A DNA stretch of 58,465 nt from Promethearchaeota archaeon (GTDB lineage: Archaea > Asgardarchaeota > Lokiarchaeia > Sigyniarchaeales > SOKP01): assembly GCA_016930515.1 (NCBI GenBank), contig JAFGGO010000036.1, positions 1 through 58,465 of the forward strand, read 5' to 3'. Shown here one piece after another: positions 116-49,857 of the stretch (positions within the stretch are counted from its first letter, which is position 1; each line of letters opens with the position of its first letter). Position numbers and translations under genes: made by a program. The notes beneath the pieces were generated by a model. The model searched no databases. It saw nothing but the letters and a program-made list of their open reading frames with translations, and was not told the DNA's origin.

Positions 116-1435
116 TTATTCTCCCCCCGCTAAAGTAACGAAGGTGACATTGTTAAAGTAATAATCGACACCCATCCTTCCATATACTTCCCCTCCAGAA
201 CCGAGGATCATCCTTGGAATATCTTTCCCAATCGTATCGTCTATAGTTTTTACGATTCTAGGAAGATTATCTCCATATGCTAAGAAACGAATTGCACAGT
301 CAAAACCAAGGAGGAATTTAGGATTCGATATTCCGCTCAATGCTTGACTCACGGCATCTCGTGCGGTCCTATGCATTATTTCCATATTACTTTGGAAAAT
401 TTCTATTTTATCAGGCACTCTTTCAAATGGAAATCCAGTGTTAACAAGACTTTCCAGCTCGGGATCGGTAATAGTTGCGGTAAGATGAATGATATCATCA
501 CCATTATCCTTTATTTCCCTCATACCCATAATAATGTGGTAATTAAGATATCCCCCACTTTTCAATTCATATAAAGCTTCCTTGGTAATACCAACTGCCG
601 AACACAACCCCAACAAGGCAGGTTTTCCATCAATTTTTAACAAGAAATTACCTATGTTTTTGGTTGGGGTGCAAGTCTTGCCCGTGCTTTCAGCCCCTGC
701 GGCAAAACCGTATCCAAATTTTGTATTACCACTTCCTGATAATATCGTTCCGACAACATTATCCGTACCCACGGTGTCGTTATAAAACTCAACCGAATCG
801 TAATCTCGTATGTTACTTGCTACATTTCCCACTACGGGATATTTCCATCCTTTTGCGTACAAATTTTCAAGTAACTCTTGCACCGCTGGCATACCCATTC
901 CTTTCTCTTTCATTTCATCCAATTCCTTCTTAAAAAATCGTTTTACGATTCCCGACATAAAAACAACGACTCTACTGTTTAAGGTCGCTTGCTTCGCAAA
1001 GATTTCTGGAGGAAATTTGATGCCATCTTGAAATAAAAGTAAGAAACGATCGTCTTTTGGTTGTAACCCTAGGTTTTTTTGATATATCGTTTCAGCGATT
1101 TTTTCAAATTCCATTCTAGAATTTGATTCGTTAAATGAGGCATCTACCGAAAAATCACCTCCGATTAGCATCAATCCCACACTCCTGAGGGCAAACCTGT
1201 CATTAACTAATATACCGTTTACCGTGCTTCCAATTAATGTAATATTTGGTCCTAATTCTTCTTTAATACCTCGAAGAATCTCTTGATAATTATATTTTCT
1301 TCGAGAAAGAGCATCAACTGCGAGTATTGCCAATTTAGGTTTGGTTTTCATATGTTCTAAAGCCTGCTTAGCAACTACTTTACCAGCGATATACCCATCT
1401 TTTTCAGTGGTAATACCTACTCCCGCATCTAACAT
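116..1435 (-). CDS. FIST-domain (FIST_N/FIST_C, NosP-like) sensory protein
   Basis: FIST hallmarks: N-terminal 'DGYIAGKVVAKQAL', 'LIGSTVNG', 'LLKIDGKPAL', 'GFDCAIR', and C-terminal 'GGEVYG..YYFNNVT'. Confidence 0.8.
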   Translation of the reverse strand: MLDAGVGITTEKDGYIAGKVVAKQALEHMKTKPKLAILAVDALSRRKYNYQEILRGIKEELGPNITLIGSTVNGILVNDRFALRSVGLMLIGGDFSVDASFNESNSRMEFEKIAETIYQKNLGLQPKDDRFLLLFQDGIKFPPEIFAKQATLNSRVVVFMSGIVKRFFKKELDEMKEKGMGMPAVQELLENLYAKGWKYPVVGNVASNIRDYDSVEFYNDTVGTDNVVGTILSGSGNTKFGYGFAAGAESTGKTCTPTKNIGNFLLKIDGKPALLGLCSAVGITKEALYELKSGGYLNYHIIMGMREIKDNGDDIIHLTATITDPELESLVNTGFPFERVPDKIEIFQSNMEIMHRTARDAVSQALSGISNPKFLLGFDCAIRFLAYGDNLPRIVKTIDDTIGKDIPRMILGSGGEVYGRMGVDYYFNNVTFVTLAGGE

Positions 1436-1473
1436 ATTTTTTCTACTTGGTTTTGTTATTATTATTAATTAGA

Positions 1474-2028
1474 TCATAGTTCTGTTAAAAAAGACTTAAT
1501 TTTGGATTGTAAATTCTCAATATCCCCTGCAATTTCCTTCAAAAGAGAAGTCATTTTCTTTTTAAATGAAGAAAAATCGTCTGTTTCTTTTTCAAACGCC
1601 TTTGGTTCGATAATTTTAGCTTGAGCTCGAATTTCTTCACGCTTGACTTGTTTGACGGTCGGGGATTTTTCAGGAATTTCCGTTGCAAGAGGGATGATTA
1701 CTTTATCCATTTCAATTTTGTTTTCTGAAGGTTCTCTAATTTCAATTGCGTTGAGGTCTGGGAAGTGTTCAGGTTCTTTTCCTTGTTCGACGACTTCGAT
1801 ACTCGCACCATATAAACGTTTTTTCGACTTGATCTTCGTTGCGGACACGCCAGCGAAGTATCTATCCATATTTTTCGCTTCAGAACCGCTCCATATCCAA
1901 ATTTTGGATTTTTTTGCGTGTTTATCGATGATAATGTATATATTGTCTTTATCTAGTTTTTTTTCGTCTGTTGGAACTAATTCTCTTCCAATTATTTTAT
2001 ACATTGTTAAACTCATAATTTTCACCAA
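1474..2028 (-). CDS. Single gelsolin-like domain protein with C-terminal helical/coiled-coil tail
   Basis: 'LDKDNIYIIID..KIWIWSGSEAK..' and 'EVVEQGKEPEHF' match the gelsolin repeat pattern (LxxxDxYIlD, IxxWxG, vxqGxEpxxF). Confidence 0.75.
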   Translation of the reverse strand: MVKIMSLTMYKIIGRELVPTDEKKLDKDNIYIIIDKHAKKSKIWIWSGSEAKNMDRYFAGVSATKIKSKKRLYGASIEVVEQGKEPEHFPDLNAIEIREPSENKIEMDKVIIPLATEIPEKSPTVKQVKREEIRAQAKIIEPKAFEKETDDFSSFKKKMTSLLKEIAGDIENLQSKIKSFLTEL

Positions 2029-2988
2029 CTATATTTTAATTATTCGACTTGCCCAGTTATCGATTCTCTCAGAAAATCGTTTTATCTCATTAGGAGAGAA
2101 TTTCTCGTGGTTCTTGCTCAAATCGCGAGAACATCGAGAAATATCGAACAGCGCCAAAGAAGTCCCCAAATGTTCCAAAATAGTGTCTTTTAATGTTTCT
2201 AAAATTTCTGAAAATTTAACTCCCGTGAAATTTGGAAGATCTGTTTTTAGAATCGAAAAGATATTCTTAATTACGATGTACTTTTCATCGTTTGATTTAG
2301 CCTTAATTGAATTTATTAAGTCTAAAAGCCCCGATTCTCTGGATTCATGCGCCTCAGATGTTATTGGGGGTTTAGATTGCTCTAATGGGATGGAGGGCAA
2401 GTTCTCCTCGCATTCAACCAATACTTCTGGAGTAACTGGAAGATCAATAAGTTCTTCACCAGTCTCAGACATTAACATTTCAGGTGCAGTAGGCTCCTCA
2501 ACAGGTTCAGGAATAATGATCCTTGAAACAGCAGTTTCTTTAGTTTCTTGTTCGATTTCAATACCTATTTTCCCAAATCCCTTCGCAGGTAATTTTAAAA
2601 CATCATCTCCGAGGTTAAATATTTGCTTGCGAATTTTTTTTAGAATGTCAATCATCGCAAGTTTTGCATAAGAAAGATTGATTTCTTGTGCCCCCATAGC
2701 TAATAAAATCAGGTGGGGAGGAATATTATAAAACATTATATACCCTCGATCTCCTTCTATTGTTAATTCTTGAAGGGGCCCATGACCAAAACCCGAGGCA
2801 AATTGTTGGAATGTATCTCTCAACACGCTTAATTCCCATAATATTTCTTCTGGAATAAAAAATGGAATCGTGGATTCAATAACCGTGTTATCTTCTACAT
2901 TTACAAAAAAACATCCGTTCAAATCCGTTATATCCTCAATTTCTCGCAAGTAGTCTAATAATTTTATACCTTCGGTCGTAATTAACAC
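2029..2988 (-). CDS. Roadblock/LC7-like N-terminal domain, Pro/Glu-rich linker, C-terminal helical domain
   Basis: 'GHGPLQELTIEGDRGYIMFYNI...LILLAMGAQEINLSYAKL' is MglB/Roadblock-like. The annotated GTG overlaps a GAGGTG SD-like motif, so the start is uncertain. Confidence 0.7.
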   Translation of the reverse strand: MLITTEGIKLLDYLREIEDITDLNGCFFVNVEDNTVIESTIPFFIPEEILWELSVLRDTFQQFASGFGHGPLQELTIEGDRGYIMFYNIPPHLILLAMGAQEINLSYAKLAMIDILKKIRKQIFNLGDDVLKLPAKGFGKIGIEIEQETKETAVSRIIIPEPVEEPTAPEMLMSETGEELIDLPVTPEVLVECEENLPSIPLEQSKPPITSEAHESRESGLLDLINSIKAKSNDEKYIVIKNIFSILKTDLPNFTGVKFSEILETLKDTILEHLGTSLALFDISRCSRDLSKNHEKFSPNEIKRFSERIDNWASRIIKI

Positions 2989-2995
2989 CTCATTT

Positions 2996-3415
2996 TTACT
3001 CTATAAACAAGAGATCGTCAAGGTTACCCTTGAAACCCTTGAATAGATCGTTAATTTTAATTGCTAAATTGCTAATACCAAAAGCAATTCGAAATACATC
3101 CGCTTCTTCTGCAATTATGGTAGTCAAGATGGCCTTTTCTCCTACTTTTTGGATTATCACTCTTCCCGACTCGCTATTTACCATAATTTTTTTAATCAAT
3201 CCTTTTTTCAAATTCATGCATAAGTTTTGAAAGGTAAGTTTTACTGCTGCCGAAACGGCACCTACTAGGATGGGATCCACTTCGCCTTTCCACGTATTTG
3301 CTATAGGAACTCCTGCGGGAAAAGCGATAACTATCTGACCGTGGACATCTCCTTGAGACTCAGTAAACTCCTTAACAAGCTCTTCTAATTGGTTCAATAA
3401 TTTATTTTCCGACAA
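2996..3415 (-). CDS. Roadblock/LC7 (MglB/LAMTOR-like) protein
   Basis: 139 aa; 'GVPIA..VDPILVGAVSAA..GLIKKIMVNSESGRVIIQKVGEKAILTTI'; TTG start. Confidence 0.85.
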   Translation of the reverse strand: MSENKLLNQLEELVKEFTESQGDVHGQIVIAFPAGVPIANTWKGEVDPILVGAVSAAVKLTFQNLCMNLKKGLIKKIMVNSESGRVIIQKVGEKAILTTIIAEEADVFRIAFGISNLAIKINDLFKGFKGNLDDLLFIE

Positions 3416-3883
3416 GTGATATCAGACTATATTTATTGTTTAATTTTAATTCTACCTTATAATTCTTTACGAGATGATTTATCAAAACACCTCGTTAGGA
3501 TGTAAAACTTTGATACATCAATCAAAAAAATTCGCTAATTTATAGTTTTTTATAACCAAAATTACTAATTTTTATATTGATTTTTTATATATTTTCTAAA
3601 GTTCCATATTTCAATAGTGTTTTATTAAATTAAACTGATTGAAATTATCACAGGCATTTAAATAGAGGATTTATTAAATAAAACAAGAAATGCCCCGAAA
3701 ATCAGAGTTAATTAGCTGAAAAGTCTAATTTTCGATATATTTTCAAAATTATCGACCCATATTTGACTTATGAAAAAAATTTCGTGTTATTAGAACACAA
3801 GTTCTTTAATAAAGTATTTTTTTAAACACAAGGTTAATTTTCCTTTTTGTTTATAATCCTAATTTTATAAAATAGGTTTAATT

Positions 3884-4429
3884 ATGAAAAAAAAAGTTAA
3901 GGGATCGTTAGCTAAGATTTTAGTTAGATCGGTTAGATCTAATAAAACTGGAGTCTACGAAGACATTCTCTCGAGAGAAGGGCAAGAATTAATCAACCAA
4001 AGGATATTCGATTCCATATGGTATTCATACGAAGCGTATAGAAATGTTCACGATGCCGTTGCTAAAGTTGAAGCAAATAATAATCAAAAAATCCTGTTTC
4101 AATGGGGACAAAAATTTGGAGATGCTCTCATGACTTCGATTTATAAAAATACTGTTTCTGTTATCGACATTAAGATGGCTATTGATAGATACAAGCGTTT
4201 TCACAATTTACTTTATAACGGGGGCATATTAAAGCATGATTTTCTTTCAAGTAGTCATTTGAGAGTTATCTATGATGGTTTTGAGCGCGATTGGGAGCTA
4301 TATTACTACATTTCCAGCGGTTGGATGCATAAGTTCTTGGAATTGTGTTTAAATAAAGATATAGCGTTCAGTTTCCACATGAAGTCATGGGAAGGCGCAC
4401 AATGGACGGTTTATGATTTTTCTTGGTAA
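3884..4429 (+). CDS. H-NOX/V4R-fold-like protein (DUF2378/TIGR02265-like), array copy 1
   Basis: Shared motifs KxKG, 'SxWYx(F/Y)ExY', 'WG', 'KYKRF', 'GWxxKF', 'KSWEG...W-stop'. The fold call is inference. Confidence 0.6.
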   Translation: MKKKVKGSLAKILVRSVRSNKTGVYEDILSREGQELINQRIFDSIWYSYEAYRNVHDAVAKVEANNNQKILFQWGQKFGDALMTSIYKNTVSVIDIKMAIDRYKRFHNLLYNGGILKHDFLSSSHLRVIYDGFERDWELYYYISSGWMHKFLELCLNKDIAFSFHMKSWEGAQWTVYDFSW

Positions 4430-4582
4430 TAAATCATTTTAACATCTCTCTATTTTTAGAGAAACAATAATATTATTATTTCTAATGAACAATACTGCTT
4501 AGAACTGTAAAAAAAAGCTTAAATTTAAATCCTTGAATTATCATGTTATTTAAAGGGGTTTTTAAAAAAAAAGGGTAAAATA

Positions 4583-5125
4583 TTGAAAAAAGTAAAAGGT
4601 TCCTTAGTTAAAATTTTAGTTAGATCGGTCAGATTGAACAAAACAGGGGCTTACGACCACATTCTCTCAAGCGAGGGACAAGAATTAGTTCATCAGAGGA
4701 TATTTGATTCTATATGGTATACTTACGAGGCCTACAGGAACGTCTACGATGCCGTTGCTAAAATTGAAGCGAATAATAATCAAAAAATTCTATTTCAATG
4801 GGGACAGAAATTCGGTGAAATAATCATGACCTCTATTTATAAAAACTCTATGATAGACAACGATGTTTCACAAGCAATAGATAAATACGCTCGATTTCAC
4901 AAGCTGGTTTATACTTGGGGCAGAATCAAGCCTGAGTTGCTTTCAGATTATCATTTAATCGTGACATACGAGGATTTCGAACGCGATTGGGAACTATATT
5001 ACTACATTTCCAGTGGTTGGATGCATAAATACTTGGAATTGTGCTTGAAAAAACCAATAACTTTCAAGTTCTACAAAAAATCTTGGGAAGGCGCAGATTG
5101 GACGACCTACGATTTTATGTGGTAA
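4583..5125 (+). CDS. H-NOX/V4R-fold-like protein, array copy 2
   Basis: Close paralog of copy 1, with long identical stretches such as 'FERDWELYYYISSGWMHK'. Confidence 0.6.
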   Translation: MKKVKGSLVKILVRSVRLNKTGAYDHILSSEGQELVHQRIFDSIWYTYEAYRNVYDAVAKIEANNNQKILFQWGQKFGEIIMTSIYKNSMIDNDVSQAIDKYARFHKLVYTWGRIKPELLSDYHLIVTYEDFERDWELYYYISSGWMHKYLELCLKKPITFKFYKKSWEGADWTTYDFMW

Positions 5126-5363
5126 AAATCAGTGATACAAATAATAAATCTGTTTCATCAGTTTAAGTTAATAATTTTTATTACAATCAACAATAAAGAC
5201 ACGATATTATCAATAAAAATAAGGCAAATTTTCTCGTTTCGAGTGAATTAGTCGCAGTTATTTGAATTAAAACATGAAAATTTAAATTTCCATTGATTTA
5301 TATATTATAAAACAAATTCAATTCATCTAAAATCACCTAAATTAATTTTCTATTAGAAAAATC

Positions 5364-5906
5364 ATGAAAAAGGCAAAAGGGACAATTATTCTTTATATCA
5401 TAAAGGGAATAAAATCCAATAAGACTGACGCTTACAAGAAATTATTATCTAAAGACGCTAAGAAATTAGTATCGCAAAACATTTTACCCTCGGAATGGTA
5501 CCCTTTCGAAGCGTATAAAGAATGCATGGTTGCCCTTGCTCGCGTTGAAACGGAGGGAAACATGGAAATTGTTAGAGATTGGGGAAGAATGTTTGGTCAG
5601 AAAATCATGACCGATTTATATGGCCAAATCATAGAAGAGGGGGACGTTCGGAAAGCATTAGATAAGTACAAGCGTTTTCAGAGAATTATTTTTAATTTTG
5701 GGTCAATAAACATCAAATTTATTTCAGAAAAAGACATAAACATTTCTTTTACTGGTTTTGATCCAAATTTTCAGGAATATTACGAGTTAGCCATGGGATG
5801 GATAGAAAAGTTCGTAGAATTATGCGTTGGAAAGAAACCTAAAAGCATTTTTTTAAATAAATCTTGGGAAGGAGATGAAATAACCAAGTTCCGAATTTCT
5901 TGGTAG
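5364..5906 (+). CDS. H-NOX/V4R-fold-like protein, array copy 3
   Basis: Same motifs, 180 aa; closest to copy 4. Confidence 0.6.
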   Translation: MKKAKGTIILYIIKGIKSNKTDAYKKLLSKDAKKLVSQNILPSEWYPFEAYKECMVALARVETEGNMEIVRDWGRMFGQKIMTDLYGQIIEEGDVRKALDKYKRFQRIIFNFGSINIKFISEKDINISFTGFDPNFQEYYELAMGWIEKFVELCVGKKPKSIFLNKSWEGDEITKFRISW

Positions 5907-6082
5907 AATCAGTTCATTTTTTAATATTAAAAAAATCCAATAATTCTAAAAGAATATAATTGGGAATGTTGAATTTTTTTTTAATACTATGTGAAACTTT
6001 AAATTTTTTTTAGTCTATTTTATAACAATAACAAATTCAATTAGATTAATAATCTTAATAATTCTCTCTTGTAAGGGTCATC

Positions 6083-6625
6083 ATGAAGAAAACAAAAGGC
6101 ATTTTTATGCATTATATCGTAACGGGAATAAAGGCTAACAAGACTGACGCTTACAAGAAATTACTGTCTAAAGACGCTAAAAAAATAATATCTCAAAATA
6201 TCTTGGCTTCGGATTGGTATCCATTCGAGATTTATAAGGAACTTTTAAACGCACTCGCAAAGGTTGAAGCACGAGGTGACATGAACATCGTTCAAAATTG
6301 GGGGCGTAATTTTGGTCATAAAGCGATGACAGAGCTATACGCTCAAACACTAGAAGAAGGTAATGTTCGAAAAGCTTTGGAGAAGTACAAGCGTTTTTCA
6401 AGAATCGTTTTCAATTTTAATTCGATTAATCTCGAATATATTTCTGGAAGAGAGATTCACGTGTCTTATGAAGATTTTGATCCCGATTTTGAAGTGTATT
6501 ACCATTTAGCAGTTGGTTGGATTGAAAAGTTCGTTGAAATATGCGCGGGTGTCATGCCTGAAAGTTGTTTTTTATCAAAATCATGGGAAGGAGACGGAAT
6601 AACGAAGTTTCGAATTTCTTGGTGA
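6083..6625 (+). CDS. H-NOX/V4R-fold-like protein, array copy 4
   Basis: Shares 'NKTDAYKKLLSKDAKK' and 'KSWEGDxITKFRISW' with copy 3. Confidence 0.6.
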   Translation: MKKTKGIFMHYIVTGIKANKTDAYKKLLSKDAKKIISQNILASDWYPFEIYKELLNALAKVEARGDMNIVQNWGRNFGHKAMTELYAQTLEEGNVRKALEKYKRFSRIVFNFNSINLEYISGREIHVSYEDFDPDFEVYYHLAVGWIEKFVEICAGVMPESCFLSKSWEGDGITKFRISW

Positions 6626-6796
6626 ATCTAATGACCTTTTTTCAAAATAGCACGACTATAATTATAATCAATAAAGATATATTTCACTTTTTTAAAGACA
6701 TATTTAAACCGAGAAAAAATGAAATATTTATATCTAAGTTTTTTTATGAGGGATGTATATAATATAAGAAAATAAACACGATTAAGGTACCGATAA

Positions 6797-7339
6797 GTGA
6801 AAAAAGTAAGAGGTTCGGTTTTTATACCTGTTGTTCGAGCCATTAAAGGCGATAAAAGTGATATTTTCGACTCCCTGATAACAGAGGAGGCAAAAGAGCT
6901 CATTGCAAATAGAATCTTGAGTTCTGCATGGTATCCATTTGACTTGTATAAAAATTGTATGAATGCAGTATCTAAGGTAGGGGCGAAAGGAAATTATGAG
7001 GTGCTCAAAAAATGGGGTGAAGATTATTACGACGAGATATTGCCCACCGTGTACAAGAAAAGCATAAGAGGCAATAATGTAAAAAACGCAATGGATATGT
7101 ACAAGAGATTCATCAAGATGATATACGATTTTGGAGAGGTTATACTAGAATATCCATCAAATAAAGAAGTTAACATAATCTACAAGGATTATGACGATGA
7201 TTTTATACCGTTTTTCTACATTACAAATGGTTTAATCGAGAAATTTGTTGAAAAAGCTTTAGAAAAAAGGGTAAAATCGGACTTTATAAGAAAATCTTGG
7301 GAACAAGGCGGAACCACCATTTTAAAGGTGACTTGGTAA
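6797..7339 (+). CDS. H-NOX/V4R-fold-like protein, array copy 5
   Basis: Same motifs; GTG start; closest to copy 6. Confidence 0.6.
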   Translation: MKKVRGSVFIPVVRAIKGDKSDIFDSLITEEAKELIANRILSSAWYPFDLYKNCMNAVSKVGAKGNYEVLKKWGEDYYDEILPTVYKKSIRGNNVKNAMDMYKRFIKMIYDFGEVILEYPSNKEVNIIYKDYDDDFIPFFYITNGLIEKFVEKALEKRVKSDFIRKSWEQGGTTILKVTW

Positions 7340-7474
7340 ACCCTGCTAAGAAAAATAATTAATTAAGGTCGTCCATAAATCAAATTTTTTCAAGTTCGGA
7401 TCGTTTTAATCCATAAAATGAGATCAACAATTTTTAATCAAATAATATAAAAATGAAGAAAAGGATGAGAAAAT

Positions 7475-8017
7475 ATGAGAATGGCTAAAGGATCGGTGTT
7501 TAAATCTGTTGCTAGGGGCATACGATCGGATAAAACTGGTTTATACGAAGATTTAATATCAGAAGAAGCAAAGGAATTGATATCGAAGAGAATCCTAAGT
7601 TCCTCGTGGTATCCGTTTGAAATTTATAAGAATTGTCTCAATGCTGTAGCACGAATAGTTATAAAGGGAAATATGACAATCGTGAGAAATTGGGGTGTCG
7701 ATTATTTCGACGAGCTTCTTCCAACAGTTTTTAAAGAAGGTATTAAAGGTGAAGAAATACACAAGGCAATGGAAAAATATAAGCGCTTTTTAAGCATGGT
7801 GTATAATTTTGGAGAATTTCTCGTTGAATATCCTTCTGAAAATGAATTAATGATAACCTATAGGAATTTTGATAAAGATTTCGAAGTGCTCTACGAAATT
7901 ATAAGAAGCTTTACGGAAAAGTTCGTTGAAACGAGCGTCGGCGAAAAAACCAATTCAGAATTCGTGCAAAAATCCTGGGAAGACGCAGAAAACACCGTTC
8001 TGAAAATTTGGTGGTAA
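7475..8017 (+). CDS. H-NOX/V4R-fold-like protein, array copy 6
   Basis: Shares 'EEAKELI..RILSSxWYPF..YKNC' and 'EYPS' with copy 5. Confidence 0.6.
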   Translation: MRMAKGSVFKSVARGIRSDKTGLYEDLISEEAKELISKRILSSSWYPFEIYKNCLNAVARIVIKGNMTIVRNWGVDYFDELLPTVFKEGIKGEEIHKAMEKYKRFLSMVYNFGEFLVEYPSENELMITYRNFDKDFEVLYEIIRSFTEKFVETSVGEKTNSEFVQKSWEDAENTVLKIWW

Positions 8018-8121
8018 TTATCAAATATTTTTTAATATTAGCACGATCCTATAAGACTGAAAAAATTTTTATAGCCAATCTCTTATATCTTGACTATAAT
8101 TAACAAGGTAGATGAGTTTAA

Positions 8122-8297
8122 GTGAATAAAAAGAAGATCAAGGGTTTGATGGTCAAGAATTTTCTAAAGGGCGTGAAAACAAGTAAGAACAAAGATACAA
8201 TCTAAAAAAACTTTCCAATAAAGCCATAGAGTTAGTAAATAACATGATTCTAGATTCTACATGGTACGATTTTGAACCATTCAATTTACAGATTTAA
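8122..8297 (+). pseudogene. Truncated, frameshifted seventh copy of the array gene
   Basis: Manual translation gives (V)NKKKIKGLMVKNFLKGVKTSKN, then a frameshift near 8192, then YNLKKLSNKAIELVNNMILDSTWYDFEPF. This matches the array N-terminus. Not in the ORF track. Confidence 0.8.
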
Positions 8298-8316
8298 AAA
8301 GAAATGAAAAAGATTT

Positions 8317-9108
8317 TTAAATTTTATCGAGTCTACCACCATTAATTCCAACTATTTCGCCGTTCATAAACCATGCTTCTTCGCTACACAAGAAAAGGAT
8401 CACGCGGGACACGTACTCGCTTTTACCGATACCCAAGGGTATTCTACCTGAGTAATACTTTCTCCACTTTCCATCCTCCTTGGACAATAATTCTCCAAGA
8501 ATCGGTGTCTCTATAAGTGTGGGCATGATTGCGTGCGTTTTGATATTATATTTAATTAATTCCAAACCGGATGTTTTAACCATCCCCAACATTCCAGCTT
8601 TAGCTGCAGAATAATTTAGTTGTCCTATATTTCCCTCCGCTGCTTGGCTACTAATCGTGATGACCCTCCTGTCAGGATATTCTGCTATAGTATCTTTTGG
8701 GTTTTGTTGGCAATATGAAATCCATCGTTTTGTACAAGCTTGTAAGATCAAGAAAAATCCTTTAAGATGAGTGTTTATGACATTATCCCATCGCTCTTCG
8801 GATAGTTTATGAATCATTCCATCTTGCAAGATTCCAGCGGAATGGATCAAAAAATCTACAGTTCTATATTTTTCAAATACTATTTGAGTACTTTTTTCTA
8901 CATCGGAGCTCTCTCGGACGTCACATTCAATGAAAATGACTTCTCCTCCTGCGTTTTTTATTTCGGTTTCAACTCGCAGACCATTCGCCTTGTCAAAGTC
9001 AAGTAATGCCACGCGAGCACCTTCTTGTGCGAAATCTTTAGCCGTTCTCTCGCCCAAACCAGAAGCACCACCTGTAACGAGGGCGACTTTACCCTTAAAT
9101 CTATTCAA
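8317..9108 (-). CDS. Short-chain dehydrogenase/reductase (FabG-like 3-oxoacyl reductase)
   Basis: TGGASGLG Rossmann motif, YSAAK catalytic motif, 'GNIGQLNY'. Confidence 0.9.
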   Translation of the reverse strand: MNRFKGKVALVTGGASGLGERTAKDFAQEGARVALLDFDKANGLRVETEIKNAGGEVIFIECDVRESSDVEKSTQIVFEKYRTVDFLIHSAGILQDGMIHKLSEERWDNVINTHLKGFFLILQACTKRWISYCQQNPKDTIAEYPDRRVITISSQAAEGNIGQLNYSAAKAGMLGMVKTSGLELIKYNIKTHAIMPTLIETPILGELLSKEDGKWRKYYSGRIPLGIGKSEYVSRVILFLCSEEAWFMNGEIVGINGGRLDKI

Positions 9109-14584: not shown

Positions 14585-14962
14585 ATGGTGTTTGGGATAG
14601 TTTCAATATTTATAGTCGAAGACGATATATCTTTACAAAACCTGTATCGAATGTTATTTACATCAACCGGACACAATGTATTGGATATCGCAAATAACGG
14701 CATGGATGCCGTGGAAAAATTTAAAGCCTTTAATAAAAAGCCCGAAATTATTATAATGGATCATAGAATGCCCATAAAAAATGGCATAGAAGCAACAAAA
14801 GAAATTTTAAAACTTCACCACAACGTTAAGATTATTTTTGCAAGCGCAGATATTTCCATACGAGAGGAGGCGCTTTCGATTGGAGCAACTCTATTCATTG
14901 AAAAACCTTTCGATATTCAAGAAGTTCTTAATAAAATCGATAGTATATTTATGACTCATTAA
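14585..14962 (+). CDS. Single-domain response regulator (CheY-like)
   Basis: 'VEDD', 'IMDHRMP.KNG', 'KPF'. Confidence 0.92.
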   Translation: MVFGIVSIFIVEDDISLQNLYRMLFTSTGHNVLDIANNGMDAVEKFKAFNKKPEIIIMDHRMPIKNGIEATKEILKLHHNVKIIFASADISIREEALSIGATLFIEKPFDIQEVLNKIDSIFMTH

Positions 14963-15155
14963 AATATTACTCATCTGCCAGAAATAAAAGAAACTTTCAC
15001 ACCAAATTTTTTGTGGTAAAAAATAAGAAGAAAGATATAAATAGAGCTTCTAATTTCTTAAATTAGAGAACAAATTCAATTTAGATTTGACGAGTGCTTT
15101 CCTTACGATTACATGTACTCCTATTGACATGATTTGGATAACGAGCTGAAAGTTA

Positions 15156-17405
15156 TTGATCGAGATTAAATCCCGAATAGTAAAAATACTCTCCCATTTT
15201 TACGAAGGGATAGCTATTGTTGAAAAACAAAGGATTATATATGTAAACGAGAAATTCGCTGAGATTTATGGATATACCGTGGAAGAACTAATTAAGCAAA
15301 GCGATGTTGATTTAGCAATTCCTGAAGAAAGAGAGAAATTGCGTAATTTAAAGGAAAAAGCAATACAGAATAGGGAAGCAAACATTGAAGTTAAATTTTG
15401 GGCATTTCGAAAAGATGGGACGAAAAGATATATTAAAAATAGATATTTCTTCGAAGAAAGTAAAGAAAAAGGAGATGTCTTTTATATCCTTGCCTTAGAT
15501 ATAACAGATTCCTTCGATCAAAAAGCTTTATTGGAAAGCGTATTTAAAGCAGCCCCAACGGGCATCGGTGTTGTCGTGGATCTCCAATTTAAAGAGGTTA
15601 ATGAAAAATTTTGCGATCTTATCGGGTATTCGAGAGAGGAGGTAATAGGTAAAAAAGTTTCAATGATATATCCTTCTATCGAGGTTTTCAAGCATGTTGG
15701 AAAGGTTAAATACGATATGATAAGAGAAAAGGGAACGGGCACCGTTGAAACTAAATTTAAATGTAAGGATGGAACAATAATTGATGTTATTCTAAGTTCA
15801 ACCCCTATCGATATTGAAGATTGGGCCAAGGGGGTAACCTTTACTGCTCTTGACATAACGGAACGGAAAAGGATGGAAAACGCATTACGAACGGAAAAGA
15901 ATATCTTCCAACAAATTTCGCTCGCAAGTCCCACAGGCATTACCATGATAAACGAGCTTGGGAAAATAGTGTTCGCAAACACCCAAGCAGAGAAAGTCTT
16001 GGGCTTAACGAAGGACGAGATAACTAACAGGTCATACAACGCCCCCAGTTGGAAGATCACCAGTTATAATGGAAGTTCTTTTCCAGACGAAGAATTACCC
16101 TTTCAAAAGGTCAAAAGAGAAAAAAAACCAGTATTTGATATTCGACATACAATTGAAAAACCTAATGGTGATCGATTGCATCTCTCCGTTAATGCCGCTC
16201 CGCTTTTTTCTGATGGAAATGAATTTGCGGGAGTTTTAGCAATCGTAGAGGATATAACTGAAAAAATTCAGGCTGAAAGAAAATTAAAGGAATCTGAAGA
16301 AACATTCAGGAGCATATTCGAATCGATTCCAATTGGGATGCATTTATATCATTTGGATGAAGAGAATAATCTAATTTTTATGGCTTCGAACCGATCTTCT
16401 GATGAAATACTTGGAGTTGATACAACACAATTTATTGGTAAGACAATCGAGGAGGCTTTTCCACCATTAGTTCAAACAGATATCCCAGAAAGATACAAAG
16501 ACCTTGCATTAGAAGAGGGAATATGGCGATGGGATCAAGTCGATTACGAATACGAACAGATAAAAGGTGCCTACGAAGTTATAGCCTTCCATATAGCGCC
16601 CAATACCATGGTCGCTTCGTTTATAGACAGTGGAGAGCGCCTCGAACACCAGAGAAAAATTATCGAATCTAAAAAACAATATCGCAAAGCATTAAATCGA
16701 GCTGAATTTTACAAGGACCTATTTGCACACGATATTAATAACATCCTTCAAAACATCAAACTTAGCGTGCAACTCAACCATGCAGAATTAGAAAAGCTTG
16801 TTAATCCCATTAAATTGTTAGAATCGCACCATCTCATTGAAGAACAGGTCAATAGGGGCGCAAAATTAGTATCTAACATACGGAAATTATCTCAGATAGA
16901 GGAAGAACACATATCATTGAAGAAAACAGAATTGATAAAAGTATTATTGGACTCCATATCTTTTGTAGACAAAAGTTATCAACATAAAAATATTGTCCTA
17001 AACTTTAAACCAAAATACAAATACATCTATATCAAGGCCAATGAATTCCTTCGGGAAATCTTCGATAATATTCTTCTTAACGCAGTAAAATATACGAGCG
17101 AACCTAAAGTATTTATAGAGATTAAACTCGAGAAAGACATGTGGAAGAATCAGGACGCCATAAAGTTGCAATTTATAGACAACGGGAGGGGAATTCCTGA
17201 CCAGTTGAAACAAAAGATATTTCAAAGAACTTATCAAGAAAGTAATAGTTTAGAAGGAACTCGTGGTATGGGATTAGGACTTTCTTTAGTAAAGAAAATT
17301 GTTGAAACCTACGAGGGAGAGATCTGGGTCGAGGATAAAATATCGGGAAATTATTCTAAAGGAAGCAATTTCGTGCTCCGCTTCTTTGAATATATAGATA
17401 ATTAA
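15156..17405 (+). CDS. Cytoplasmic multi-PAS sensor histidine kinase
   Basis: About four PAS/PAC domains; H-box 'AHDINN'; N-box 'NAVKY'; G1 'DNGRGI'; G2 'GMGLGL'. Confidence 0.92.
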   Translation: MIEIKSRIVKILSHFYEGIAIVEKQRIIYVNEKFAEIYGYTVEELIKQSDVDLAIPEEREKLRNLKEKAIQNREANIEVKFWAFRKDGTKRYIKNRYFFEESKEKGDVFYILALDITDSFDQKALLESVFKAAPTGIGVVVDLQFKEVNEKFCDLIGYSREEVIGKKVSMIYPSIEVFKHVGKVKYDMIREKGTGTVETKFKCKDGTIIDVILSSTPIDIEDWAKGVTFTALDITERKRMENALRTEKNIFQQISLASPTGITMINELGKIVFANTQAEKVLGLTKDEITNRSYNAPSWKITSYNGSSFPDEELPFQKVKREKKPVFDIRHTIEKPNGDRLHLSVNAAPLFSDGNEFAGVLAIVEDITEKIQAERKLKESEETFRSIFESIPIGMHLYHLDEENNLIFMASNRSSDEILGVDTTQFIGKTIEEAFPPLVQTDIPERYKDLALEEGIWRWDQVDYEYEQIKGAYEVIAFHIAPNTMVASFIDSGERLEHQRKIIESKKQYRKALNRAEFYKDLFAHDINNILQNIKLSVQLNHAELEKLVNPIKLLESHHLIEEQVNRGAKLVSNIRKLSQIEEEHISLKKTELIKVLLDSISFVDKSYQHKNIVLNFKPKYKYIYIKANEFLREIFDNILLNAVKYTSEPKVFIEIKLEKDMWKNQDAIKLQFIDNGRGIPDQLKQKIFQRTYQESNSLEGTRGMGLGLSLVKKIVETYEGEIWVEDKISGNYSKGSNFVLRFFEYIDN

Positions 17406-48999: not shown

Positions 49000-49857
49000 C
49001 TATTTAGATAATATAAGCGGTATTTTGGCTTTAAAGTAATTTTTTGTAATGTTTAATAGGAAAACGATGTAATCTTGCTTCGATTTCGTGTTATATATGT
49101 GGTTAAAATGGTTCTTGAGGTCCTTCAATAAGATTGGATCGTCTTTTTTATCCTTGAAATGTTCGATCAAGCCTTGAGAATATGTGTAAGCCTTGTTAAT
49201 CTCGTTTTTGATCAGGATAAAACTTCTCACGAGATCGTGTTCGTTAAGAAATTTTTCAACCATATTTCGTTCGATTTTTAAATGTTCCTCTGATAAAATT
49301 CCATTATTATCAGTAATGATGATATCCCCTTCTAATTTAATATAATCATCGAGTAGATCGTAATTAGGATCTCTTTCTCCTTTTCGGATAATGGAAATGT
49401 CGTGCGCAAATGTTTCTCGAGTGATAAATTCTAAAAAATCGGATAAATGGTCGTAAAGGAACTCTTCTTTAAGAACAAGGGTCACTTTTTTTTTGTTAAA
49501 AATCGCTTTTAGAAGGCGTGTAAGAAGTGGAATCGAACAATTCAACTTAATGAGGTTCAGATCGAGAGTCTCACGCTTAATTTGTTCTAACCAATCTTGC
49601 TCCTTTTTATCTGATTCTTTTTTTCCAGGAGGATTGAGCTTCAGGTCTGCTATAAAACAATCCCTAAAAATGAAATTCTCGTCAACATATCCGATGAAAG
49701 AATGTTCGCAAACGCTATTCTTGGGAATTTCTGCAGCGTATAAGCCTCTTTCGGAGCGTTCGTGGATTTGTTTTGAAATATTTACCCATCCGACTTTTTT
49801 ACAAATAGGACACCGTACTTCTATTGATTTTTGATTCTTCTTCATGGCGTGTTCCAA
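49000..49857 (-). CDS. Hypothetical protein with N-terminal Zn-binding CxxC...CxH domain
   Basis: 'VRCPICKK...CEHSFIGYVDENF'. Confidence 0.6.
   Translation of the reverse strand: MEHAMKKNQKSIEVRCPICKKVGWVNISKQIHERSERGLYAAEIPKNSVCEHSFIGYVDENFIFRDCFIADLKLNPPGKKESDKKEQDWLEQIKRETLDLNLIKLNCSIPLLTRLLKAIFNKKKVTLVLKEEFLYDHLSDFLEFITRETFAHDISIIRKGERDPNYDLLDDYIKLEGDIIITDNNGILSEEHLKIERNMVEKFLNEHDLVRSFILIKNEINKAYTYSQGLIEHFKDKKDDPILLKDLKNHFNHIYNTKSKQDYIVFLLNITKNYFKAKIPLILSK

Follow-up and report, generated by a model that had tools for sequence, protein, structure and literature searches.

A conserved FIST, LuxE, LuxC and Roadblock cassette in Lokiarchaeia, with a neighbouring array of H-NOX-fold paralogs

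What provides signal input to the Roadblock/GTPase and actin machinery of Asgard archaea is an open question, partly because Asgard GTPases and their regulators are seldom encoded in operons (PMC10933270). A lokiarchaeal locus at the start of contig JAFGGO010000036.1 (analysed over 58,465 nt, the window) bears on this question. Four minus-strand ORFs at 116-3415 encode two Roadblock proteins, a gelsolin and a FIST protein, and six paralogs are encoded on the plus strand beyond a divergent intergenic region of 468 nt (3416-3883). A sequence-only reading had taken operon and array for a single sensing system. The ORF coordinates agree with its four closely spaced genes, with gaps of 7, 0 and 38 nt (the middle value presumes a TTG start, whereas orthologs begin some four codons downstream), with its divergent region, and with its statement that no GTPase or kinase gene lies within 116-8297. 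The six tandem paralogs are also present, but the last of them ends at 8017 and not at 8297. Is this one system, and if not, what are the partners of the operon?

The first gene encodes RB1 (2996-3415, minus strand), a stand-alone Roadblock/LC7 protein of 139 aa; its orthologs are found in 11 of 40 relatives and are located in the operon every time. RB2 (2029-2988, minus strand, 319 aa) consists of an N-terminal Roadblock domain (residues ~1-125), a variable Pro/Glu linker and a conserved helical C-terminal domain (~220-319). Both Roadblocks score below the Pfam threshold and were identified by profile comparison with solved structures (E 9.5e-18, or about 1e-17, for RB1 against 9jue, and 4e-4 for the RB2 N-terminus), which upholds the earlier assignment. 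The C-terminal domain of RB2 matched no named family (Atlas 0.79), giving only weak matches to the C-termini of long helical Loki proteins, and a distant genome (G276) has a short RB2 without it. An ORF at 1643-2671 on the plus strand is antisense to RB2 and gelsolin and was rejected as a shadow. A promoter and terminator scan, of bacterial type, gave results near chance.

The third gene (1474-2028, minus strand) encodes a single-domain gelsolin of 184 aa: residues 5-97 form the domain, and a variable linker leads to an amphipathic helix at the C-terminus. The domain had been predicted correctly: it scores 30.5 bits in Pfam against a cut-off of 21, and its best PDB match is the Asgard 2DGel3 (E 1e-12). 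The cassettes of G037, L080 and G276 have no gelsolin, which makes it an accessory, dispensable member. The fourth gene (116-1435, minus strand) encodes a FIST protein of 439 aa, with FIST N (63 bits) and FIST C (32.5 bits) domains both over the Pfam cut-offs.

The locus is truncated by the contig end 115 nt beyond FIST (positions 1-115), and it is because luxE and luxC lie past this point that the first reading missed the true partners. Orthologs of both genes are present in 11 of 12 operon-bearing relatives and in none of 28 others; the lone exception is a genome that is 68% complete. They adjoin the operon in approximately 20 of 20 loci with informative flanking DNA, including an inverted arrangement and loci that lack gelsolin, and in the distant family of G276 the order FIST, luxE, luxC, RB, RB forms one run. 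The distance from FIST to luxE/luxC is ~100-300 nt, and the linkage is known as gene order rather than as co-transcription. Family membership of these off-window partners was confirmed, with the GGGWK loop and C-terminal Cys retained in LuxE and Cys298 in LuxC. In the genome studied here, luxC and a HEAT-like gene sit at the end of another contig, C174, which terminates 30 nt upstream of luxC. A search of this genome did not find luxE, which probably falls in the assembly gap next to FIST, a region that is contiguous in relatives. The conserved core is therefore FIST, LuxE, LuxC and the Roadblock pair. The earlier view of the operon as a sensing module stands in so far as this is a conserved module of sensing type, but its partners are luxE and luxC and not the array. 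A literature search, of incomplete coverage, found no paper on this cassette, and a search of genome contigs for related loci, with the FIST or a DUF2378 protein as query, gave no match.

Within FIST, C380 and E416 are invariant across 52 orthologs; R383 is invariant as well. The best structural match is the FIST domain of human FBXO22 (PDB 8ua3; Z 19.1, rmsd 3.7, 281 residues aligned), which together with the Pfam scores confirms the FIST identity. C380 and E416 align to FBXO22 C326 and E362, a pair described as aldehyde-reactive; this aldehyde chemistry is known solely from synthetic degraders (bioRxiv 10.1101/2025.08.29.673087). The Cys/Glu pair is general among FIST proteins, including those without luxE/luxC, and is therefore no proof of an aldehyde ligand. 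A string in FIST that resembles Walker A was dismissed for lack of conservation.

Complex modelling points to a physical link between FIST and the Roadblocks. FIST against RB1 plus RB2(1-130) scored 0.83, compared with 0.62 for the best control; in the benchmark, 58 of 80 solved complexes and 2 of 110 mismatched pairs attain this mark. At least 78% of contacts are shared between runs, partner pLDDT is at least 87, and the modelled FIST contacts include residues 384-393, the helix immediately past C380. Conservation of the RB2 interface residues exceeds the average of the domain (p ~0.008), while that on the FIST side is no higher than average. The model supports an RB1/RB2 heterodimer that carries FIST docked on its N/C-terminal-helix face. 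No small GTPase is conserved at the cassette, one being adjacent in just 2 of ~20 loci, in GTPase-rich genomes.

The reading that we tentatively prefer, while holding it somewhat short of probable, is a Roadblock switch that senses an acyl group or aldehyde and acts in trans on a GTPase or on actin. The minus-strand genes would be the visible half of a Lokiarchaeia cassette comprising the Roadblock pair, FIST, LuxE and LuxC, with the HEAT-repeat gene in addition. Judging from their families and intact catalytic residues, LuxE would activate a carboxylic acid, fatty or other, which LuxC would reduce to the aldehyde. FIST, by analogy with FBXO22, may bind the aldehyde or acyl group at the Cys380/Glu416 pocket while seated, as modelled, on the N/C-terminal-helix face of the heterodimer. 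That would leave the opposite, central-helix face open to a small GTPase whose gene lies elsewhere; gelsolin might connect the output to actin or the membrane. It is tempting to go further and speculate that the cassette is a self-contained fatty-aldehyde circuit, in which a reversible reaction at FIST Cys380 switches the heterodimer towards a small GTPase and, through gelsolin, archaeal actin; this fuller version is unlikely.

The same genes could serve lipid chemistry without any signal relay. LuxE, with or without LuxC, might provide a membrane anchor by S-acylating a cassette member, be it FIST at Cys380 or another; alternatively, FIST might itself be a Cys/Glu enzyme replacing LuxD. In either case the Roadblocks would localise a lipid-modifying pathway. 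LuxE is known to transfer acyl groups to cysteines (PMC9157457), luxD and luxAB were seen at none of the cassette loci examined, and the FIST fold also resembles chorismatase (Z 12.5) and Toblerone-fold hydrolases (Z 10.5). However, the equally strict retention of LuxC and LuxE favours a reduced product, the nearest fold is the non-enzymatic FBXO22, and the nearest Asgard relatives of this FIST belong to signalling cassettes that have KaiC and a GTPase but no Lux genes. Such a role is the most credible of the alternatives, although we consider it doubtful.

Bacterial FIST proteins bind heme and NO (PMC12570481, PMC8846402), and a NosP-like sensor of NO or heme acting through H317 or C380, both invariant in the cassette family, would make luxE and luxC co-regulated metabolic passengers. 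This is quite unlikely: related Asgard FISTs do not conserve H317, the place of the C-terminal HxN/HCN His known from other FISTs is taken by Tyr or Phe, no partner histidine kinase is conserved at the ~20 loci, and the persistence of luxE/luxC linkage through rearrangement is left unexplained. FIST might instead be a ligand-free adaptor, as FBXO22 is with BACH1, that scaffolds Roadblocks and LuxCE in one complex. FBXO22 as the top structural match and the modelled docking fit an adaptor, but the strictly invariant Cys/Arg/Glu pocket residues suggest chemistry, and this explanation is improbable.

The array encodes six plus-strand paralogs of 180-181 aa at 3884-8017, with 33-73% identity to copy 1 and spacers of 135-238 nt, hence not tightly packed. 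The H-NOX fold proposed for them is well founded. A model of copy 3 (pLDDT 94) has the full two-subdomain fold, matches H-NOX in Foldseek (E 1.4e-7) and superposes on 4u99 with Z 13.6 and rmsd 3.8 over 168 aligned residues, and hhalign gives 95-96%. The V4R/TRAPP Bet3 alternative fares less well, with a structural Z of 9-10 and no conserved Cys/Zn site in the family (no Cys column exceeds 28%).

Heme or NO sensing by the array, as originally suggested, finds little support. The RFH His is retained in copies 1 (3884-4429) and 2 (4583-5125; His106). Position 106 is Gln in copy 3 (5364-5906), Ser in copy 4 (6083-6625), Ile in copy 5 (6797-7339) and Leu in copy 6 (7475-8017), so four of six lack a proximal-type His; copies 3 and 5 are histidine-free altogether. 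This His is present in 22 of 42 family members and in 14 of 15 in genus g11. It lies within ~2 residues of the H-NOX proximal His (helix alphaF), with ambiguous gap placement; neither a MAFFT co-alignment nor an initial hhalign comparison located that H-NOX residue on the array. The YxSxR heme-propionate motif is not conserved, the string occurring anywhere in just 2 of 99 sequences with the Tyr alone aligning, and no partner kinase is adjacent.

Searches with the window proteins gave no match in PF09536 (DUF2378) or NCBIfam, and only spurious ones in PDB sequences when the array profiles were used (CagY repeats, gp120). However, 18 of 99 aligned homologs match PF09536, and homologs at E 1e-39 carry the TIGR02265 name. 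By sequence relationship the array is a sister subfamily of DUF2378/TIGR02265, with its closest relatives in Deltaproteobacteria, Myxococcota and Thermodesulfobacteriota. Its members would be stand-alone small-ligand binders with an H-NOX fold that multiplied in tandem within this lineage. An acyl-CoA link of the array is seen in this genus and at one bacterial locus; it is missing in three other bacterial contexts and is a lead only.

Are array and operon linked? The array lies within ~4 kb of the operon in four genomes (this one, G002, G005 and GCA_048941705.1), all of which belong to or adjoin one genus. Direct abutment occurs in this genome alone among those examined; G002 has a zinc-ribbon-like gene between the two, and in both G005 and GCA_048941705.1 the intervening genes are acd-etfB-etfA. 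Close relatives thus carry other genes at this place, and the 468-nt region that operon and array share is probably a derived state. In a set of 155 Lokiarchaeia genomes from outside the genus, the operon FIST is present in 16, the array in nine and both in one, where they lie on separate contigs (Fisher p=1). The proposed coupling therefore does not extend across Lokiarchaeia, where the two are unlinked outside this genus. Thus, despite the genuine fold, the histidines of copies 1-2 and the four linked cases, a single gas- or small-ligand-sensing system with the array as input to FIST, Roadblocks and gelsolin is highly improbable, all the more so since 12 of the 18 copies in this genome are spread over eight unrelated loci beyond the array. 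Array and operon are two independent units, neighbours by chance in this genus, and the array is best studied separately.

As a candidate connection of lipid chemistry with signalling on cell shape, the cassette brings together a candidate sensor, a pathway that may make its ligand and a modelled interface of sensor and Roadblocks, all amenable to work with soluble proteins. For the conserved FIST Cys/Glu pocket that FBXO22 degraders exploit, it provides a first hypothesis of a natural ligand; if the aldehyde circuit is true, it would further suggest that the drug-targeted FBXO22 Cys326 pocket has its origin in a natural aldehyde sensor.

Each component has known counterparts. The array shares with DUF2378/TIGR02265 (PF09536) and H-NOX (PF07700) its ~180-aa stand-alone H-NOX-fold proteins in expanding paralog families, and differs in lacking YxSxR and a kinase partner and in having the proximal His in part of the family. 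Like the Asgard mini-gelsolins ProGel, 1DGelX and B35_Gel (PMC7444086; bioRxiv 10.1101/2025.11.30.690169), the cassette gelsolin has one domain with a disordered or helical tail; unlike them, its tail is short and it sits in an operon. FIST shares the fold and the Cys/Glu pair of FBXO22 but has no F-box and is 13% identical. NosP/NosK (PMC12570481, PMC8846402) also have a stand-alone FIST N+C protein encoded beside presumed output partners; there, the output is a histidine kinase or c-di-GMP, whereas the cassette has Roadblocks and LuxE/LuxC, and a heme ligand is not evident.

In MglA/MglB, Ragulator and Asgard Roadblock dimers (PMC10933270), as here, two adjacent Roadblocks can form a heterodimer platform. 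The cassette differs in having no conserved GTPase at the locus, an RB2 with a long linker and a helical domain outside known families, and a FIST modelled on the N/C-helix face. In other Asgard families, a KaiC-Roadblock-FIST-Ras-like cassette, for which a literature search found no paper, places a Roadblock beside a FIST that is related to this one and shares its Cys/Glu motif; it has a single Roadblock, KaiC and a GTPase, and no LuxE/LuxC or gelsolin. Finally, LuxC and LuxE are adjacent with catalytic motifs intact, as in the LuxC-LuxE fatty acid reductase whose motifs were used for comparison (PMC9157457), but the loci show no luxA, luxB or luxD, and the two genes have signalling-type neighbours.

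The operon consists of four minus-strand genes separated by intergenic gaps of 7, 0 and 38 nt: the Roadblock/LC7 genes RB1 (2996-3415) and RB2 (2029-2988), a gelsolin gene (1474-2028) and a FIST gene (116-1435). A divergent gap of 468 nt separates it from the array, six tandem plus-strand paralogs of 180 aa (copies 1-6; 3884-8017). Names of close homologs identify the source genome as a MAG from Promethearchaeota (Lokiarchaeia). This layout was described correctly in the sequence-only reading, and the domain identities also hold: FIST N/C and gelsolin domains exceed the Pfam cut-offs in a search of the window proteins, and solved Roadblocks are matched by RB1 and by the RB2 N-terminus. In both RB2 and the operon gelsolin, the linker varies and the helical C-terminus is conserved. 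The helical C-domain of RB2 (2032-2330), which falls in no named family, weakly matches the C-termini of 650-1000-aa helical Lokiarchaeia proteins in many genomes, including G000:C122 in the source genome and repeats in C23. The FIST stop codon lies only 115 nt from the window start; thus, the locus is truncated.

In relatives, the operon is followed downstream by luxE and luxC, along with a HEAT-like gene in convergent orientation. Of 40 relatives, 12 carry the operon's four genes as a group; individual genomes lack RB1 or gelsolin. Orthologous luxE and luxC accompany the operon in 11 of these 12 and are found in none of the other 28, but since the relatives share kinship and are not independent, this is a pattern rather than a statistic. 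Rearranged loci are more telling for the linkage than such counts. In GCA_019058395.1, luxE-luxC is inverted and placed on the other side of the operon; in two loci (G037 and L080) luxE/C are kept and gelsolin is absent; and a distant family has the order HEAT>FIST>luxE>luxC>RB>RB, with gelsolin absent and RB2 short. Gelsolin is therefore an accessory, while LuxE and LuxC, both of which keep their catalytic motifs, are core to the cassette. That the core cassette is functionally linked is very probable. In the source genome, where no luxE was found, contig C174 stops 30 nt upstream of luxC, so luxE most likely sits in the assembly gap between C174 and the window contig.

A second, decayed cassette copy (G013:C14:38081-39206) has an intact gelsolin, FIST and luxC fragments, and an adjoining HEAT gene. 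The closest paralog of the operon gelsolin (185 aa, E 7e-13) lies at 7867-8424 within G000:C115:6498-17289, in a co-directional chemotaxis cluster (cheW, cheY, cheA, DUF11 protein, unknown, CheW-CheC fusion, gelsolin, cheD, cheC), and is a possible chemotaxis-to-actin link.

The FIST model (pLDDT 93) has human FBXO22 as its top structural match (Z 19.1, rmsd 3.7, 281 aligned). C380, R383 and E416 do not vary among 52 FIST orthologs. An Asgard FIST profile, with an E of only 0.17, aligns C380 and E416 to FBXO22 C326 and E362; this alignment is independent of the fold match, and the spacing is identical in both pairs (36 residues). In FBXO22, aldehydes react with C326 to give a hemithioacetal, an activity that requires E362 (bioRxiv 10.1101/2025.08.29.673087). 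LuxE/LuxC turn fatty acids into aldehydes by reduction (PMC9157457). An acyl or aldehyde ligand at C380 can be suggested tentatively; the main caveat is that FISTs in general carry this Cys/Glu pair.

A model of FIST with RB1 and RB2(1-130) scored 0.83; 58 of the 80 solved complexes attain this mark, against 2 of the 110 mismatched pairs. The best control, which retained RB2 and FIST, scored 0.62, and unrelated partners 0.00. Runs agree on at least 78% of contacts, with partner pLDDT of at least 87, and no solved FIST-Roadblock complex that the model might have memorised was found among structures. FIST thus probably binds the Roadblocks, with the predicted contact on their N/C-terminal-helix face, partly via the helix following C380. 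In MglA/MglB, the GTPase docks on the other side of the Roadblocks, their central-helix face, which is well conserved in the operon Roadblocks. Genes, families, linkage and conserved residues are observed directly, and FIST-Roadblock binding is predicted by the model; the aldehyde ligand is inferred, as are a small GTPase partner that may act in trans and an actin output, which is less likely than not.

The array was proposed to be coupled to this operon, a claim that synteny across Lokiarchaeia does not bear out. The array family is found in 15 of 161 genomes of the class (3 genera) and the FIST ortholog in 21 (13 genera). Outside the source genus, the array is present in 9 genomes, FIST in 16, and both in one, on separate contigs, against about 0.9 expected by chance (Fisher p=1). 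Inside the genus, the array lies near the operon, separated from it by acd-etfB-etfA in G005 and GCA_048941705.1 and by a zinc-ribbon-like gene in G002. The best matches to those ETF genes in the source genome are 38% paralogs on another contig, and the shared 468-nt region probably reflects loss of genes once lying between array and operon. Copies 1-4 and 6 pair one-to-one or one-to-two with those of G003, and the source genome has 18 family copies at 9 loci. In all likelihood, the array is independent of the operon.

Window 49000-49857 encodes a member of a 13-copy, Pfam-less zinc-ribbon-like family (~280 aa); in G002 and G005, the array is flanked by members of this family. Window 14585-17405, 6.5 kb from the array, encodes a stand-alone receiver and a soluble multi-PAS histidine kinase; neither was seen beside arrays in relatives. 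Two arrays of 7-8 family members (G293:C30, G230:C7) carry the RFH His in nearly all copies and have small GTPase genes on both flanks and a metallophosphoesterase on one.

The array had been called H-NOX/V4R-like. The H-NOX part stands: the model of copy 3 (pLDDT 94) aligns with H-NOX from end to end (Foldseek E 1.4e-7; Z 13.6, rmsd 3.8, 168 aligned), a better match than TRAPPC3 and V4R, and the family lacks a Cys/Zn site. Profile-profile comparison with genuine H-NOX sequences gave 95-96% probability; the most closely related proteins, found in Deltaproteobacteria, Myxococcota and Thermodesulfobacteriota, are of the DUF2378/TIGR02265 type. The RFH-motif His aligns at, or within ~2 residues of, the H-NOX proximal position. 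It occurs in 22 of the 42 family members, in 14 of 15 copies of another genus, and in window copies 1 and 2 only; copies 3 and 5 have no histidines. Since the YxSxR motif is absent from the family and the His is found in only part of it, these are not canonical H-NOX proteins. Our best guess is that they have diversified as binders of small ligands and that some may bind heme in a non-canonical way. Array domains also occur fused, as two-domain proteins and a 556-aa three-domain protein followed by an SDR gene (L086; JGI 3300032069). Of 201 Asgard genomes searched, only 3 have H-NOX (PF07700) matches above the cut-off, and in one match (L048) His and YxSxR are both present.

Every cassette component is a member of a known family, and no paper on their combination was found in the literature searched. 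New here are the test separating array from operon, the accessory status of gelsolin beside core LuxE/C, the equivalence of the Cys/Glu pairs in FIST and FBXO22, and the modelled interface between FIST and the Roadblocks. Related FISTs in other Asgard families belong to a widespread KaiC-Roadblock-FIST-Ras-like GTPase cassette (ten loci), with an MFS transporter after FIST in some. On its partner genes, the operon falls outside both NosP and MglAB; it resembles a sensor-Roadblock-GTPase module, following the logic of MglB and Ragulator.
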